Below are positions 29,547-34,800 of a stretch of DNA of 64,000 nt, in pieces (position 1 is the first letter of the stretch; each line of letters begins with the position of its first letter). The DNA is taken from positions 352,001-416,000 of the forward strand of contig CBDFLQ010000005.1 of assembly GCA_965249275.1 (NCBI GenBank). Reading direction: 5' to 3'. The position numbers and the translations under genes were made by a program. This stretch comes from Dehalococcoidia bacterium (lineage in GTDB: Bacteria > Chloroflexota > Dehalococcoidia > Plut-88900). The notes below the pieces were generated by a model, which was not told where the DNA came from, searched no databases, and worked only from the letters and a program-made list of their open reading frames with translations.

Positions 29547-30104
29547 ATGCTTGCCTTGAACATGACAAATGCCGACCAATCCTTTATCCGAAGGATGTAC
29601 ACCGCCGACAACCTACCTGTCTTGCAACGACTCCCCGACGCATCAGTCGACCTCATCTACCTGGACCCGCCCTTCAATTCCAACCGGGACTACGCTGCGC
29701 CTATAACGGTTAAGAACCCCAAGACCGGCAAGCGGGAAAAGCACCTGGCCGAGTTCAAGGACACTTGGACTTTCACTGATGACGACGCCGAGTGGTTATA
29801 TGTTATTAGGTCTGACTATCCCACCGTCTATGCAGTGATCGAGTCAGTCAAAACAGCCCACAGCTTCCGCATGGCGGGCTACTTGTGCATGATGGCTGTC
29901 CGGTTACTCGAAATGCAACGCATTCTCAAGCATAGCGGGGCGATATATCTACACTGCGATCCTACCGCATCTCACTATCTGAAACTGCTCATGGACACAG
30001 TATTCGGCCCGTCAAACTTCAAGGCTGACATTACTTGGAGGCGAACTAGCAGCCATAACGACGTAAGGCGGAATTACGGTGCATTGGGAGACAACTTATT
30101 CTTT
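29547..30104 (+). pseudogene. 5' fragment of a DNA methyltransferase-HNH gene interrupted by the IS1595 element
   Basis: VDLIYLDPPFNS, IYLHCDPTASHYLK; joins in frame to 33913 when the element and one TSD are removed (DNLFF|YTKSTNF...MPYSKEH). Confidence 0.9.
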
Positions 30105-30152
30105 GGGAATTATATACAATAAGGCATCAGGAATTGGCCTGATAAACCATAC

Positions 30153-30554
30153 CTATCGTGGACGACGGCCCAACGTCGAGGTTGTGTGACCTGTTGCCGT
30201 GTTATTTTCCGCCGACCACTCCCAATTTCGGGTCAACTCTTTCAGCCATTGGGCACCTTCGGCAGCATCAAAATCACTCGCACCGCAATCGGGCCAATTG
30301 GGGCGACCAGAATAGTTCATCTTCACTCCCTGCGCCGATGCAATGAACCAGACCGAATCAGCGTCTGTTCGCTCCTTAGAATTATCACGACCCCATTCAA
30401 CGTACATTGAAAAGGGAGACACATTTACATTCGTCGGCCAAACAAAATCGTTCGGAAGATGCTCCAACAGCGCCTCCAGCGCCTGCGTCATCTGATGCAT
30501 GCTGTCTACCACCCCGTACATGGACCCGCATCCCGAAGAACCTTCAATCGTCAT
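30153..30554 (-). CDS. Hypothetical protein (transposon cargo)
   Basis: 133-aa ORF with AAGGAG RBS upstream of ATG; no recognised motif. Confidence 0.6.
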   Translation of the reverse strand: MTIEGSSGCGSMYGVVDSMHQMTQALEALLEHLPNDFVWPTNVNVSPFSMYVEWGRDNSKERTDADSVWFIASAQGVKMNYSGRPNWPDCGASDFDAAEGAQWLKELTRNWEWSAENNTATGHTTSTLGRRPR

Positions 30555-30658
30555 AATACTCCTTGCTTACGAACATCTTAGCTATCCAACTGTCTCTTTT
30601 TCCCGCGTCTCGCCGTAGGTCTTTACTACTCTCTCGGGGTTTGAGAACGTGGGTTGGT

Positions 30659-30747
30659 GGGTAAGTGCCGGAACCGGCAGACGGGCTATCCTGCCAAGAT
30701 AGTGGCCCTTCGTGGTCGTAGGGGTTCGATCCCCCTCTTACCCACCA
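30659..30747 (+). tRNA. Class II tRNA with Leu-type body and GCC (Gly) anticodon
   Basis: Acceptor GGGTAAG/CTTACCC + A73 + CCA; D arm CCG-GAACCGGCAGA-CGG; anticodon arm CTATC-CTGCCAA-GATAG; long variable arm; T arm AGGGG-TTCGATC-CCCCT. Confidence 0.9.
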
Positions 30748-30757
30748 ACCCCTCTAA

Positions 30758-30985
30758 TTATCCTCGAGGCGGGAAGGGATCGTTGCCGTAGCTGTCCTTC
30801 TCCCTGATCTTCCCGTCCTTGCCATGTAAGTAATACTCGGCGTCATGGTTTCGAGCAACCTGCCGGCCGTAAGAATCTGCCTCGGCCTGGGTATCGAAGG
30901 ACTTCGTAATCCTCGATGCTCCGCCCTTCCGCACAGCCCACTTATCCCCATAGGGAACGGTGTGTTGAGTTTCTTTGCGTGCCAT
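30758..30985 (-). CDS. DUF2188-family small protein
   Basis: QHTVPYGDKWAVRKGGASRIT..FDTQAEA...LHGKDGKIREKDSYGNDPFPPRG. Confidence 0.8.
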   Translation of the reverse strand: MARKETQHTVPYGDKWAVRKGGASRITKSFDTQAEADSYGRQVARNHDAEYYLHGKDGKIREKDSYGNDPFPPRG

Positions 30986-31002
30986 TACATTACCTCTGTT
31001 AT

Positions 31003-31152
31003 CTAAGGTGCTACCTCTTTATGGTCCTTCCCGTCGTCCTGCTCCTCACCCTTCTTGGGATTCGGCCCCTTCACCACCGCCCGTAGCACATCCTCAAACG
31101 TGTCGGGTATGTGGAGCCTCTCAAACGGGCTTCTGTCTTCGCTCTTTTTCAT
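31003..31152 (-). CDS. Small hypothetical protein (LHIPDTFEDVLRAVVK type)
   Basis: 49-aa ORF co-oriented with the transposase and DUF2188 gene. Confidence 0.5.
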   Translation of the reverse strand: MKKSEDRSPFERLHIPDTFEDVLRAVVKGPNPKKGEEQDDGKDHKEVAP

Positions 31153-31322
31153 CTTATATAGATTATACCCCCACTTGCCTGAGATTGAAACACCTGTGCG
31201 GTATGGCACTATAGAAACTAAGGGGGGGTAAGTAGACGGTAGACTTTACCCTCCCTACCTGTTGATAATTCCAATATAGAAGAAAGCCTTGGAGGTTAAT
31301 CACATCTCCAAGACTCTCATCA

Positions 31323-31411
31323 GCCGTAGTGGTGGAACTGGTAGACACGCCCGGCTTGCACCCGGGTGGACTAATCGTCCGTGCAGGGTTCGAATCCCGC
31401 CTACGGCACCA
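31323..31411 (+). tRNA. Class II tRNA with Leu-type body and TGC (Ala) anticodon
   Basis: Acceptor GCCGTAG/CTACGGC + A73 + CCA; Leu-like GTGGTGGAACTGGTAGACACGC; anticodon arm CCCGG-CTTGCAC-CCGGG; variable arm GGAC-TAATC-GTCC; T arm with one bulged A; no G3:U70. Confidence 0.9.
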
Positions 31412-31501
31412 CTCTTCTTGATCCCTATTTTCATTATAAACACCTCTTCACCTTCCTGTAAATTCGTTGACGTCTACCCCCTGTGGGTGTACCTTGTCCC
31501 C

Positions 31502-31592
31502 GCTTAGGTAGTCTACCCGTACGCTGAACGTTATTTGGGCATGGGGCCGCTCATGCCCCCTTGCCAGTGAAACGGGCCAGGACTGCCTAAGC
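31502..31592 (+). ncRNA. Putative long-hairpin RNA or leader behind its own promoter
   Basis: GCTTAGGTAGTC/GACTGCCTAAGC, CCCGT/ACGGG and GGGCATG/CATGCCC nested stems; TTGACG-17nt-TACCTT at ~31468-31496. Confidence 0.45.
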
Positions 31593-31627
31593 AACGGTCA
31601 CCAGCCTAGCTGCAAGGGGGTTCCAAT

Positions 31628-32173
31628 ATGACAAAAAGCCGAATCGGGTTTTGGCTACTCATCTCTCTAATCCCTATGGGATTACTCACCTTCCTCGGAT
31701 TCATCATAAGCATTGTTCTATTCATAGGGTCCAGTAGTGATGAACCAGAGGGAGCCGAAATAGCATGTACCTTTGTCTTCTTTGCTTCGCTCTTCTACTG
31801 GTGGGGTGCTCTCTTCACCGGCATCGGATTGAAGATATTGTCCAGGCGGGAAAATCAGCAGATGTTTGCTCAAGCTCAGCGATACGCCGAGGTACACGGA
31901 TGGCAACCCATCTCGCAGTCCGCATGGAGAGCACTTAAAGCAGACAGAGCTTCCCTTGCTGTAAGTCGAAGCATTCAGGGGACGATGTATACCCTCACTA
32001 TCGCATCAGGAGTGAACACCACCACTGTCACTAACTTCGCTACACCTCTATGGGCACTACAATTTGGTGACTGGTTATGGGAGAGAACGGGGGGCGAAAA
32101 CATCACCCCAGAGACAGCACAGGCTCAACGGCAAGAATGGTCTCAGAACTTGGCAATCATTCCCACCGTCTAG
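31628..32173 (+). CDS. Hypothetical membrane protein (two N-terminal TM helices; transposon cargo)
   Basis: 181-aa ORF with two hydrophobic segments and AAGGGGG RBS. Confidence 0.7.
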   Translation: MTKSRIGFWLLISLIPMGLLTFLGFIISIVLFIGSSSDEPEGAEIACTFVFFASLFYWWGALFTGIGLKILSRRENQQMFAQAQRYAEVHGWQPISQSAWRALKADRASLAVSRSIQGTMYTLTIASGVNTTTVTNFATPLWALQFGDWLWERTGGENITPETAQAQRQEWSQNLAIIPTV

Positions 32174-32188
32174 CCATCCATACGGTAA

Positions 32189-33106
32189 CTACACATTGGT
32201 AATTAAGTCGTCGTAGGTTAGTCGCTTGCCGTGCGTTCCCTTGATCAACCTCTTCATCTGGTCAAGGGTATCCATGGGCCGGTCGTTGTGCCGCCCAGCG
32301 AACTCGGTGGCATAGCGGCTCAAGTGTTTGGGAGAGACATGGTGGTAAGTACCCATAATCCCCCGCTTGAGCATGGCCCAGTGGCTCTCGATGCTGTTGG
32401 TCGTAACCTCACCCCTAACGTACTCCCCGGTGGCATGATCAACCGCTTCGTGCTTCAAGGGAATACCCCTGTAGGAGAGGTGTCCATCACTGTGCAAGGT
32501 AGCGTCCGGTTCAACGTTGTCGAGAACGAATCCTTGGAGAATGGGTTTCTTCGTAGAGGGAAGCACCTCGGCCTTGATCTGATTAGTTGGCTTATCCAAG
32601 AGCCCCGCCACGATGGCCTTACCTTTAGGCCCTCTCCCCATGCCTCTCCACTTCCCGCCAACGTAGGTCTCATCCACCTCGACAGGCCCTCCGAAGAGTC
32701 CCTGCTCTGACTCCCACGCCTTCCGTATCCTGTGCGCCAAGTGCCAAGCTGATTTTTGGGTAATGTTGAGGTCCCGATGCAATTTCATCGAGGAAACGCC
32801 CTTGAGGTTCGTGGTCATGAGGTAAATGGCGATACCCCACTTGGAGAGAGGAAGGTTGGAACCGTGCATGACGGTGCCAGTTTTGACGGAAAATTCCAGC
32901 TGGCAGTAGGTGCAGTGTAAGGGCTTTACCTTGCGGTTGGGGCGACGGGTGATCTCCATGCCGCCACAGCGGGGGCATGATATACCGCTGGGCCAACGAG
33001 ACTCGATGAATAACTGCTCAGCCTTTTCCTCGGTGGAGAATAATTTAGTGACCTCCAGAAGGGACAAACCCTTCCGATAATGCTTACCTGGGGCGTTCCG
33101 TGCCAT
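32189..33106 (-). CDS. IS1595-family transposase
   Basis: Zn ribbon CPRC...CTYC, KGVSSMKLHRDL, VEVDETYVGG, HSDG, TNSIESHW, HLSRY; start placed at MARNAPG after a TTTACA-17nt-TATAAT promoter. Confidence 0.95.
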   Translation of the reverse strand: MARNAPGKHYRKGLSLLEVTKLFSTEEKAEQLFIESRWPSGISCPRCGGMEITRRPNRKVKPLHCTYCQLEFSVKTGTVMHGSNLPLSKWGIAIYLMTTNLKGVSSMKLHRDLNITQKSAWHLAHRIRKAWESEQGLFGGPVEVDETYVGGKWRGMGRGPKGKAIVAGLLDKPTNQIKAEVLPSTKKPILQGFVLDNVEPDATLHSDGHLSYRGIPLKHEAVDHATGEYVRGEVTTNSIESHWAMLKRGIMGTYHHVSPKHLSRYATEFAGRHNDRPMDTLDQMKRLIKGTHGKRLTYDDLITNV

Positions 33107-33220
33107 GCGCTGATCTCCTACTTCGGCTATCCTTGTTGACATAACTATTATAACACATCTCCTAATTTGTGTAAACAATGCCCAAGCAATGGAGAAAACA
33201 TGGAAAATACTGCTAAAACT

Positions 33221-33250
33221 TGGACACAATTTCAGTGGAAATAGTATCAT
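33221..33250 (+). promoter_or_regulatory. Putative sigma70 promoter for the structured-RNA array
   Basis: TGGACA-18nt-TATCAT immediately upstream of the first structured unit, divergent from the transposase promoter. Confidence 0.5.
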
Positions 33251-33256
33251 ACGGAG

Positions 33257-33410
33257 GGCAGGGTACGCAAGGAATTTATGGCACCAGGAGGCACCAATGG
33301 TCCCCTATCGGGGAATGAAACTCAGCCGGCTCCACTTTGAATAGACGTTCTGCAAAAACGTCGTGGGGTTGGCTACAAGAAGGACATTTTAGACCCTTGC
33401 ATACCCTGCC
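33257..33410 (+). ncRNA. Structured RNA unit 1, with an anticodon-like stem-loop (GCA)
   Basis: Closing stem GGCAGGGTAcGCAAGG/CCTTGCaTACCCTGCC; inner AGCCGGCTCCAC/GTGGGGTTGGCT; hairpin GACGTT-CTGCAAA-AACGTC. Confidence 0.6.
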
Positions 33411-33419
33411 AATACAACG

Positions 33420-33516
33420 TGAGAGGACATGCCTGTTGGTGCAGGCCAGAATTTGCCAAACTCTTGAGAACGTTGGCATATCCAACGTTGCGGTTCGATT
33501 CCGATCCTCTCCGCCA
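33420..33516 (+). tRNA. Irregular (9/3-like, allo-tRNA-like) tRNA with GCC anticodon and G73
   Basis: GAGAGGA/TCCTCTC acceptor core ending GCCA; D arm GCCTG-TTGGTG-CAGGC; AGAAT-TTGCCAA-ACTCT; long extra arm AACGTTGG/CCAACGTT; 3-bp T stem CGG-TTCGATT-CCG. Confidence 0.7.
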
Positions 33517-33542
33517 TCAAATAATTTGTATTATCATATAGA

Positions 33543-33660
33543 TGAGGGGAGTAGTGGTAATCCGGTAGACTCTCGATGTTCCCAACATCGGCATTGCTTA
33601 GGTAGTGTGTGTCAGACGCTGGCACAGAGTTTTTACAGAGGAACCATCTACTCTCCTTCA
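33543..33660 (+). ncRNA. tRNA-like unit with CCC anticodon loop and no canonical T arm
   Basis: TGAGGGGAGTAGTGGT/ACCATCTACTCTCCTTCA stem; Leu-like GGTAGAC; CGATG-TTCCCAA-CATCG; extra arms GCATTGC/GTAGTGT and GTGTCAG/CTGGCAC. Confidence 0.55.
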
Positions 33661-33673
33661 AGATTATACATGT

Positions 33674-33743
33674 CGCAGTCCCTGGCTGTGTGACAGGAAC
33701 GCCTTGGTACCAGCGTTGGGCTTTCAACCTGACTGCGCCTCCA
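33674..33743 (+). ncRNA. Small cloverleaf-like unit
   Basis: CGCAGTC/GACTGCG acceptor-like stem followed by CCTCCA; arms CCTG/CAGG, AACGC/GCGTT and GGG-CTTTCAA-CCT. Confidence 0.4.
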
Positions 33744-33760
33744 TATCTCCTCAATTTGAA

Positions 33761-33874
33761 TGGGAAACAAGATGGACGACCAGACATATGTCACTGTTGG
33801 AGGTTTGGCAAGACCTCCTTGATGAATTAGCGCTCGTGTTCAGCGTCGCTTCATATCTGGTCGTCCATCTCCCA
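33761..33874 (+). ncRNA. Structured RNA unit with long closing stem and TTGGCAA loop
   Basis: AGATGGACGACCAGA/TCTGGTCGTCCATCT 15-bp stem ending CCCA; inner GGAGGT-TTGGCAAG-ACCTCC. Confidence 0.5.
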
Positions 33875-33912
33875 CTGCTTGATGCCTTATTGTATATAAT
33901 TCCCTATTCTTT

Positions 33913-34800
33913 TATACGAAGAGCACTAATTTCATATTTAATACTCAATACATGCCTTACTCCAAAGAGCACATGGAGAAATTTTACTCCCACATCGATA
34001 AAGACGGCAGAAAGTACAGCACTGACAATTTGAGAAGCCCTGCACCCAGACCTAATTTGACTTACGAGTACAAGGGATACAAACCTCACCCCAATGGGTG
34101 GACAGTGTCACTTGAGAGAATGAAGCGACTCGACGCAGAGGGGCGTCTTCATTTTCCGAAAAAGAAGGACGGTCGAATCCGCATAAAGAAATTCCTTGAT
34201 GAAATGCCCGGCGTGCCTATGGGCAATATATGGGATGACATCAGACCTATCTCATCTCACTCTGAAGAACGCCTAGGCTACCCTACCCAGAAACCCTTGG
34301 CCCTGCTAGAACGCGTAATTAGGGCATCCACCAACGAGGGCGATCTAGTTTTGGACCCCTTTGCGGGTTGCGCCACGGCCTGTGTCGCAGCGGAGAAACT
34401 GAAACGGCAGTGGATCGGCATTGACGTGAGCGACCTTGCAGTCAAGCACGTCTTGGAGCGCATCCAGGATGGTTACAACCAGGGCGACTTCCCGGATATC
34501 CTTGAAACAGGGTTCCATCCCGACAAGGTGGATCACTTAGTTATCAGTGGGGAGGCACGCGCCCCGCGCTACCAAGACCGCAAGCCGGAGCTATACGTAC
34601 ACCAGAACGGCAGGTGTGCGGGCTGCCACCTCGAACTCCCGGAGCGCCTTCTGGCCGTGGACCATATTAAGCCGAGATCCAAGGGGGGCGCCGACGCTAT
34701 CGAAAACCTTCAACTCCTCTGCACTGACTGCAACTCCCGCAAAGGCAACCGGGACATGAAATACCTGTTGGAGTCCCTAAAGAGGGACGGAATAATTTAG
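33913..34800 (+). pseudogene. 3' fragment of the DNA methyltransferase with C-terminal HNH nuclease domain
   Basis: GYPTQKPLALLERVI, VLDPFAGCAT (motif I), CAGC...VDHIKPRSKGG...NLQLLCTDCNSRKG; internal ATG at 33952. Confidence 0.9.

Follow-up and report, generated by a model that had tools for sequence, protein, structure and literature searches.

Leucine-type tRNA genes with glycine and alanine anticodons on an IS1595-family transposon of a Dehalococcoidia bacterium

The GCC tRNA gene and its leucine-type body

The 64,000-nt stretch of DNA analysed here (the window) covers positions 352,001 to 416,000 of contig CBDFLQ010000005.1 in assembly GCA_965249275.1 of a Dehalococcoidia bacterium. At 30659-30747, on the plus strand, it contains an 89-nt class II tRNA gene in which a leucine-type body is combined with the glycine anticodon GCC (the GCC tRNA), as determined using ARAGORN, Rfam and isotype models derived from the host's own tRNAs. 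A second leucine-bodied class II tRNA gene, with the alanine anticodon UGC (the UGC tRNA; 89 nt in ARAGORN and 47.2 bits in Rfam), lies on the same strand at 31323-31411, 575 nt downstream of the first. Both mismatched tRNAs are passengers of an IS1595-family transposon (30105-33904) that has recently split a DNA methylase-HNH gene. A sequence-only reading of the window had presented the GCC tRNA as a lone chromosomal oddity, possibly drifted; this was not borne out, the gene being one of two such tRNAs on a mobile element.

Read from the sequence, the GCC tRNA consists of a 7-bp acceptor stem (GGGUAAG/CUUACCC) followed by U8 and G9, a 3-bp D stem with G13.A22, a D loop of A14 A15 C C G18 G19 C A20a G, an anticodon stem (CUAUC/GAUAG) closing the loop CUGCCAA, a variable region of 17 nt with a 4-bp stem and then two unpaired bases, G and U48, a T arm of AGGGG-UUCGAUC-CCCCU, and a 3' end with A73 at 30744 and an encoded CCA; all stems are free of broken pairs. 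The Rfam tRNA family (RF00005) matched 30659-30744 with 47.8 bits, against a gathering threshold of 29, when 30550-30850 was searched alone; in the gathering scan over the whole window the speed filters dropped this gene and only the UGC tRNA was reported. The well-formed class II cloverleaf described in the sequence-only reading, with its long variable arm, A73, leucine-type D loop, U48 and GCC anticodon, was thereby confirmed. Over 29648-34600 the window is identical to Logan contigs of three runs on a single sample, and 30539-30752 is an exact match to a contig from a second study, so that the GCC anticodon is not an assembly slip of a single record. Positions 33-38 of the anticodon loop (UGCCAA) are the same as in the host tRNA-Gly(GCC), and position 37 is A, where leucine tRNAs that read CUN codons have G; the loop of the GCC tRNA thus fits its anticodon. 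The gene at 30659-30747 is therefore a genuine tRNA gene, in which a glycine anticodon is joined to a body of leucine type.

The host genome (7 contigs totalling 2.9 Mb; completeness 87%) has 44 tRNA genes and, since these include a normal 75-nt tRNA-Gly(GCC), a normal tRNA-Ala(UGC) and five tRNA-Leu genes, both long tRNAs are extras. The isotype of their bodies was examined using covariance models made from the host's own tRNAs, which are small models based on five Leu, four Ser and three Gly sequences. The GCC tRNA scored 71.9 bits with the Leu model, 45.1 with the Ser model and 24.3 with the Gly model, and the UGC tRNA 77.9, 47.1 and 24.6 bits, respectively; host Ser and Tyr tRNAs reached 35-61 bits with the Leu model. 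Of the three isotypes compared, leucine scored best and glycine lowest for both tRNAs. Host Leu tRNAs scored 27-32 bits with the Gly model, above the GCC tRNA, which is thus no more glycine-like than an ordinary Leu tRNA. Global alignment against the host tRNAs gave Leu genes as the best partners of the GCC tRNA, and its identity of only 54-61% to the five of them indicates that it did not arise recently by mutation of a host gene.

In the available text of PMC9976931, the determinants of leucyl-tRNA synthetase (LeuRS) in E. coli and Aquifex are given as A73, U8:A14, A15-U48, G18G19, A20a and the D/T-loop pairs, and recognition by these enzymes requires neither the anticodon nor the variable arm. 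All determinants listed there are present in the GCC tRNA, including a canonical T loop, and the feature of bacterial tRNA-Leu that is missing is a leucine anticodon (NAG or YAA). The same text gives the bacterial tRNA-Gly identity set as U73, G1:C72, C2:G71, C35 and C36. Of these, G1:C72, C35 and C36 fit, but the GCC tRNA has A73, G2:C71 and the 17-nt variable region, whereas U73 and C2:G71 occur in all three host Gly tRNAs; the earlier statement that these two glycine determinants are missing therefore holds. The UGC tRNA lacks G3.U70, the pair required by alanyl-tRNA synthetase (AlaRS). The order of the model scores and the presence of the LeuRS determinants support, in silico, a leucine-type body for the GCC tRNA, in agreement with the sequence-only reading.

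A further feature of the GCC tRNA is its 5' leader (30651-30658, plus strand), which is complementary to A73-CCA and four trailer bases. GGGTTGGT at 30651-30658 pairs with ACCAACCC at 30744-30751, giving eight consecutive pairs past the acceptor stem, and the predicted fold of 30640-30765 includes a 15-bp helix (z -3.66). The perfect complementarity noted earlier is thus upheld, and it is unusual among host tRNAs, the other 43 of which have 0-2 such pairs. The eight other leucine-like odd tRNAs of Dehalococcoidia described below have 0-4, as do 86 of 87 pattern-matched metagenome and viral tRNAs, the remaining one having 9. The leader/CCA pairing is genuine and exceeds what chance would give; its interpretation as a trait of the family was rejected, the pairing being private to this copy. 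A possible function of the leader as a gate on maturation would fit the predicted fold.

The IS1595-family transposon and its passengers

The element (30105-33904, 3.8 kb) is delimited by terminal inverted repeats of 33 nt at 30105-30137 and 33872-33904, which are 91% complementary, and is flanked by identical 8-bp copies of a target-site duplication, TATTCTTT, at 30097-30104 and 33905-33912. The IS1595 family is characterised by a DDE transposase with an N-terminal zinc ribbon, inverted repeats, an 8-bp target duplication and, in some members, passenger genes. The transposase gene, at 32189-33250 on the minus strand, matches NCBIfam NF033547 with 170.3 bits (cut-off 75) as well as Pfam DDE_Tnp_IS1595 and Zn_ribbon_IS1595 (PF12762 and PF12760); a transposase of this type and inverted repeats with an 8-bp direct duplication are both present. 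The insertion cut a methylase gene whose N-terminal half (29547-30122, plus strand) matches positions 1-94 of the 221 in the Pfam N6_N4_Mtase profile and whose C-terminal half (33952-34800, plus strand) matches positions 132-216 and is fused to an HNH nuclease domain; excision of 30105-33912 in silico yields a single open frame of 481 aa ending at 34800. This split target may have been a restriction-modification or phage-derived gene, inactivated by the insertion. The element occurs once in its own genome, and the GC content is 0.50-0.52 at 30-34 kb vs about 0.59 elsewhere.

The cargo is arranged in the order orf133, GCC tRNA, DUF2188 gene, orf68, UGC tRNA, orf181, transposase and orf132. Four of the open reading frames (ORFs) have no family in Pfam, NCBIfam or PADLOC, namely orf133 (30153-30554, minus strand), orf68 (31003-31209, minus strand), orf181 (31628-32173, plus strand), a predicted membrane protein, and orf132 (33389-33787, minus strand), which lies upstream of the transposase gene. 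A search of 5.8 billion proteins returned 11 homologues of orf133, all unnamed, and none was found in 400 other Dehalococcoidia genomes. Between the two tRNAs, the DUF2188 protein (30758-30985, minus strand; Pfam PF09954, 75.1 bits) is an end-to-end match to the PADLOC candidate defence family PDC-S16 (PDLC04941, 108.5 bits). Of the four other Dehalococcoidia metagenome-assembled genomes with an orf181 homologue, three have it, at 35-52% identity, beside an IS1595 transposase gene or a remnant of one, and in one of the relatives, G008, the orf181 homologue is adjoined by an orf68 homologue of 62% identity. The non-coding stretch 31462-31627 upstream of orf181 has 80% DNA identity to its counterpart in G005, where the orf181 protein is only about 49% identical; this stretch may contain a regulatory site or a small RNA. 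Two sigma-70-like promoter matches lie near the UGC tRNA: a weak one upstream of it on the plus strand (31240-31269, 9/12 consensus positions), in a region whose site count is not above that of shuffles, and a strong one on the minus strand (31433-31462, TTTACA-18-TATAAT, 11/12); both are consensus matches only.

Related tRNAs in Dehalococcoidia, metagenomes and viral contigs

The distribution of such elements was examined in 401 Dehalococcoidia genomes, a sample of a larger class, of which 47 contain transposases of the same subfamily (E <= 1e-70). A related element, in L024, has the same termini (GGGAATTATATAC), repeats of 35 nt, an orf181 homologue and a transposase with 55% identity, and carries an 87-nt leucine-bodied tRNA with the alanine anticodon AGC. 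Another, in L040 of genome G290, is 3.1 kb long with 23-nt repeats and a transposase with 53% identity, and carries a leucine-bodied tRNA with the glutamate anticodon CUC; the terminus GGGAMTTATATAC of the window's left repeat is shared by the L024 and L040 elements. Transposons of this subfamily whose transposases are 53-60% identical each retain a well-paired leucine-bodied tRNA. G008, which belongs to the same genus as the host, has a 96-nt Ser-type tRNA in the vicinity of its orf68 and orf181 homologues and of a remnant transposase gene, and between conserved flanks it lacks the stretch containing the UGC tRNA (31204-31463). This 96-nt tRNA (L021:3824-3919, or G008:C1) presents a mirror case of allo-tRNA-like appearance, having G73, the leucine anticodon UAA and scores of 69.3 bits for Ser vs 40.3 for Leu, about 730 nt from the orf68 homologue.

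Within 1.5 kb on either side of related transposase genes, ARAGORN found tRNA-like genes in 8 of 29 loci. In our reading, six of these eight contain odd tRNAs (Ser-type GCG and GAU, Leu-type AGA and CUC, and irregular class I forms), the other two having normal-looking host tRNAs. In the Dehalococcoidia genus g9, two Leu-type tRNAs without an encoded CCA (L058:1321-1410 and L042:9996-10084) are assigned the anticodon AGA, with A34, by ARAGORN, and their leaders pair with three to four further bases of the 3' end; one of them is directly upstream of an IS1595 transposase gene, along with a 73-nt irregular tRNA (UGC).

The same genomes were searched with a pattern that combined a long variable arm with a D arm of leucine type and an anticodon lacking A35. 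In the host genome this pattern matches the GCC and UGC tRNAs only, and across the class it matches 11 of the 401 genomes vs, by our reading, 4 for a reversed-pattern control. Eight of the ten loci in other genomes were tRNA-like according to ARAGORN, four being fully formed (anticodons CCA, GGC, CUC and CUC) and four partial or decayed; the matches in G099 and G333 were discarded, as ARAGORN gave no tRNA, and a 95-nt 'tRNA-Arg' in L038 was set aside as a GC-rich false call. In G007, of the same genus as the host, tRNA-Leu(CAA) is followed at 680 nt by a near-copy of itself (L029:1494-1580), whose anticodon is CCA and whose 5' acceptor strand is unpaired; this 3' duplicate looks like an att-like leftover of an integrative element.

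A stricter pattern, requiring an anticodon without A35, GGAA, U33, R37, GGTTCRA and ACCA, was applied to metagenomes and viral contigs, and its counts are lower bounds biased to well-formed genes. It matched at least 120 metagenome stretches, of which 80 were listed and analysed, and gave 19 matches in viral contigs. As read by ARAGORN, the 80 listed loci comprise 59 with non-leucine anticodons, 8 with canonical leucine anticodons, 9 with ambiguous loops and 4 uncalled. The 59 include UUA (20), UGG (9), GUC (5), AGG, CUA and UGA (3 each), ACC, GCC and UGC (2 each) and ten anticodons found once. In 22 of the 80 listed loci, tblastn (E <= 1e-5) detected an IS1595-type transposase gene at a distance of 26-1300 nt from the tRNA, with 30-44% identity across the aligned segments; this linkage is found in 21 of the 59 mismatched loci, none of the 8 canonical leucine or 9 ambiguous loci and 1 of the 4 uncalled loci. 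Eighteen of the 22 have the convergent arrangement of tRNA and transposase genes seen in the window, and long inverted repeats surround both genes in 5 of 15 loci examined. The pairing of a mismatched Leu-type tRNA with a transposase recurs in soil, peat and sediment metagenomes. No conserved protein partner emerged, as tblastn of the element's proteins against the metagenome loci matched the transposase only.

Four leucine-bodied tRNAs with the anticodon GCC (window, L106, L130 and L215) are independent, with differing stems. In L215, a viral contig, the GCC tRNA has a GGGG acceptor start and belongs to a cluster of four irregular tRNA-like genes (L215:1698-3027), which also includes an 84-nt class II-like gene with the anticodon GUU. 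The UUA group (20 listed contigs) has the loop CUUUAAA in 19 of 20 despite 14 distinct acceptor strands, and a constant loop on varying acceptor stems points to selection on the anticodon itself. An acceptor start of GGG was found in 9 of 13 leucine-bodied tRNAs with glycine, alanine or aspartate anticodons vs 3 of 20 in the UUA group, so that acceptor stem and anticodon are not independent. In nine loci (L084, L092, L099, L100, L138, L144, L148, L156 and L157) the UUA elements have a modular layout: a leucine-bodied UUA (ochre) tRNA is followed on the same strand by a conserved ORF of ~135 aa, then, about 560 nt from this first tRNA, by a class I tRNA-like gene with the anticodon UCG, CGC, GCU, CGU or ACU, and lastly by a convergent IS1595 transposase gene. 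The ~135-aa ORF has no significant Pfam match, and the module is possibly what the available text of Mukai et al. 2017 calls 'polycistrons of irregular tRNAs'.

The possibility that a transposase needs its own tRNA for translation was considered and rejected. No in-frame stop was found in the aligned core of the UUA-element transposases examined, and the one locus of 20 aligned with in-frame stops, two in number, is a UGG locus (L091); in an alignment of 43 sequences, the window's transposase has leucine in all ten consensus-leucine columns, with no glycine or alanine there.

Selection on the tRNA structure was assessed in two sets. Among nine leucine-like odd tRNAs of Dehalococcoidia, 97.2% of cells were paired and 16 of 20 pairs had changes on both sides; none of 500 shuffles was as high, and slid controls were 39-54% paired. 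Among 12 tRNAs with GGG acceptors, including the four with GCC, 96.3% of cells were paired and 14 of 20 pairs had both-side changes; none of 500 shuffles was as high on four of five measures and 4 of 500 on the pair count, with slid controls at 46-55%. These alignments indicate that the stems of the odd leucine-bodied tRNAs are maintained by compensatory changes.

Predicted decoding, rival explanations and biological meaning

Only a few settings are known in which natural tRNAs depart from the codon table, namely nev-tRNAs, allo-tRNAs and tRNAProX; the mismatch described here resides on a mobile element whose ends are clearly defined. According to the available texts of PMC3333845 and PMC4300185, nev-tRNAs are class II tRNAs derived from tRNA-Leu, with glycine (CCC) or isoleucine (UAU) anticodons, that are charged in vitro with leucine only, and nev-tRNA-Gly, once leucylated, decodes GGG as leucine in vitro (Hamashima et al. 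2012, PMC3333845). The GCC tRNA likewise has a leucine-derived class II body and an anticodon that is neither leucine nor serine, a functional likeness being drawn by analogy. As described in those texts, nev-tRNAs are nuclear genes of nematodes only, favour rare codons and are not reported on mobile elements, whereas the GCC tRNA has a bacterial host, reads the commonest glycine codons and is transposon-borne. Allo-tRNAs, in the available text of Mukai et al. 2017 (PMC5389517), are bacterial class II tRNAs whose anticodons, for 35 codons including stops, are at odds with their identity; they put serine at leucine codons and kill E. coli, and some are active missense or nonsense suppressors there. 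Toxin-antitoxin genes and an ORF related to transposons were noted in their neighbourhood, and a possible link of the irregular tRNA polycistrons to transposable elements was raised. They have 8/4 or 9/3 acceptor/T stems and serine identity (G73), whereas the GCC tRNA has a 7-bp acceptor and a 5-bp T stem, A73, a Leu-type D loop and a Ser score 26.8 bits below its Leu score. That text describes neither an IS1595 link nor a leucine-bodied class, and its Figure 4 and supplements could overlap the UUA-type elements. The tRNAProX/ProRSx system of Streptomyces and Kitasatospora also joins the body of one isotype to the anticodons of others (Ala, Asn and Thr), and tRNAProX expressed in E. coli leads to mistranslation (PMC11415595, available text); it is, however, a class I, proline-type tRNA with A33, A34, other oddities and a dedicated synthetase, in contrast to the GCC tRNA with its normal U33, a host with one LeuRS gene found and an element without a synthetase. 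In the available text of this 2024 review of mistranslating tRNAs, tRNAProX is the named bacterial case and the word stem 'transpos' is absent. Our literature search returned no account of bacterial leucine-bodied mismatched tRNAs or of tRNA cargo in IS1595 elements. The IS1595 elements described here have tRNA genes as recurrent cargo, and the carriage of mismatched class II tRNAs is apparently a wider, undescribed habit of IS1595-type transposons.

By analogy with these systems, it is suggested that the Leu-type GCC and UGC tRNAs carried by the transposon are leucylated by the host LeuRS, inserting leucine for glycine and alanine, a reading to which we give an even chance. One LeuRS gene exceeds the cut-off in the 87%-complete genome, and a second, dedicated LeuRS was sought there and not found. 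If LeuRS ignores the anticodon, as under the E. coli and Aquifex rules, this single enzyme would charge a matured GCC tRNA with leucine. The leucylated GCC tRNA would then compete with the normal tRNA-Gly(GCC) at GGC and GGU codons, where leucine would replace glycine, and the UGC tRNA would place leucine for alanine at GCA and the codons that it reads by wobble. Output is probably low, as a consensus promoter was not found upstream of the GCC tRNA and its CCA end is locked; the leader would hold A73-CCA in the 15-bp helix and so hinder RNase P and 3' maturation. The transposon's gain could lie in host stress tolerance, addiction or toxicity.

Several observations weigh against this proposal. 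The GCC tRNA has G2:C71, whereas C2:G71 occurs in all five host Leu tRNAs, and the LeuRS rules applied are those of E. coli and Aquifex, not of Dehalococcoidia. The T stem of the UGC tRNA is flawed, with one bulged or mismatched base. A search for sigma-70-like consensus sites upstream of the GCC tRNA gave no match, and the strongest promoter match nearby, the 11/12 site, reads antisense through both tRNAs into orf68, the DUF2188 gene and orf133. The leader/CCA helix could abolish maturation altogether instead of tuning it. GGC and GGU account for 56% of glycine codons and about 5% of all codons (glycine making up 9.4%), so that an active Gly-to-Leu tRNA would be expected to be quite harmful. 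The pattern used to select the covariation sets imposes fixed D-loop, T-loop and CCA features, and the differences and covariation within these sets may be partly inherited from different parental Leu genes. Among the sequencing runs listed for the stretch, none was of RNA. Nematode nev-tRNAs, conserved and mature as they are, gave no detectable mistranslation in vivo according to the available text of the 2015 study (PMC4300185).

Some of these points would suit tRNA-shaped RNAs that are made but not used for decoding, acting instead as RNase P/Z signals, as antisense partners of the minus-strand transcript from the site at 31462-31433, or as decoys for tRNA-targeting enzymes. This explanation, the best placed of the rivals although on balance unlikely, would accommodate the strong promoter-like site directed antisense through both tRNAs into three minus-strand ORFs, the CCA end sequestered in the 15-bp helix, the negative in vivo result for nev-tRNAs and the lack of translational activity in the majority of allo-tRNA-UAU species (PMC5389517, available text). 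However, a processing or antisense signal would not require A73, an encoded CCA, G18G19, a canonical T loop, U33 and purine 37 together, nor a loop 33-38 equal to that of the host Gly tRNA; the UUA group keeps its loop across differing acceptor stems, and the antisense layout is not general, since UUA-type elements have the neighbouring ORF on the tRNA strand.

It is improbable that the tRNAs are functionless hitch-hikers, that is, Leu tRNA copies captured by transposons, with mutated anticodons, now decaying. Decay is seen in relatives, as in the 3' duplicate of tRNA-Leu(CAA) with the anticodon CCA in G007 and the broken copies in G077 and G129, and it would agree with the bulged T stem of the UGC tRNA and the absence of the corresponding stretch from G008. 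Against this, every stem of the GCC tRNA is intact despite its low identity to the host Leu tRNAs, GCC is two changes from any leucine anticodon, the divergent transposons of the subfamily each keep a well-paired leucine-bodied tRNA, and GCC leucine-bodied tRNAs exist in four independent versions with different stems. Charging with glycine, or another amino acid compatible with the anticodon, would make these tRNAs oddly shaped cognates without miscoding, which is very unlikely: G1:C72, G3:C70, C35 and C36 of the GCC tRNA belong to the bacterial glycine identity set (PMC9976931, available text) and the GGG acceptor start is skewed by anticodon, but the GCC tRNA lacks U73 and C2:G71, scores below ordinary host Leu tRNAs with the Gly model and combines a Leu-type D loop with a long variable arm, and its UGC sister lacks the pair that AlaRS requires.

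With both tRNAs placed on a transposon, and a wider set of such tRNAs found, the question shifts from an odd tRNA to a mobile recoding cargo. If leucylation and decoding occur as proposed, mistranslation or readthrough would be a transferable trait of IS1595-type transposons that carry mismatched class II tRNAs, ochre suppressors included. A broader and more tentative extension, which we regard as possible but doubtful, is that leucine-bodied recoding tRNAs form a large class, so far unrecognised, with IS1595 transposons as their vehicles, through which codon meaning would be horizontally transferable and selectable, covering missense at glycine, alanine, aspartate, glutamate and proline codons as well as ochre and amber suppression, with the element of the window as a 'Gly/Ala to Leu' cassette throttled by its leader. 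Should the tRNAs be inactive, the question would be why transposons retain perfect tRNA shapes. If active, they would be natural anticodon-independent substrates of LeuRS, useful in genetic-code engineering, and would provide a route for mistranslation or stop-codon readthrough to spread between genomes.

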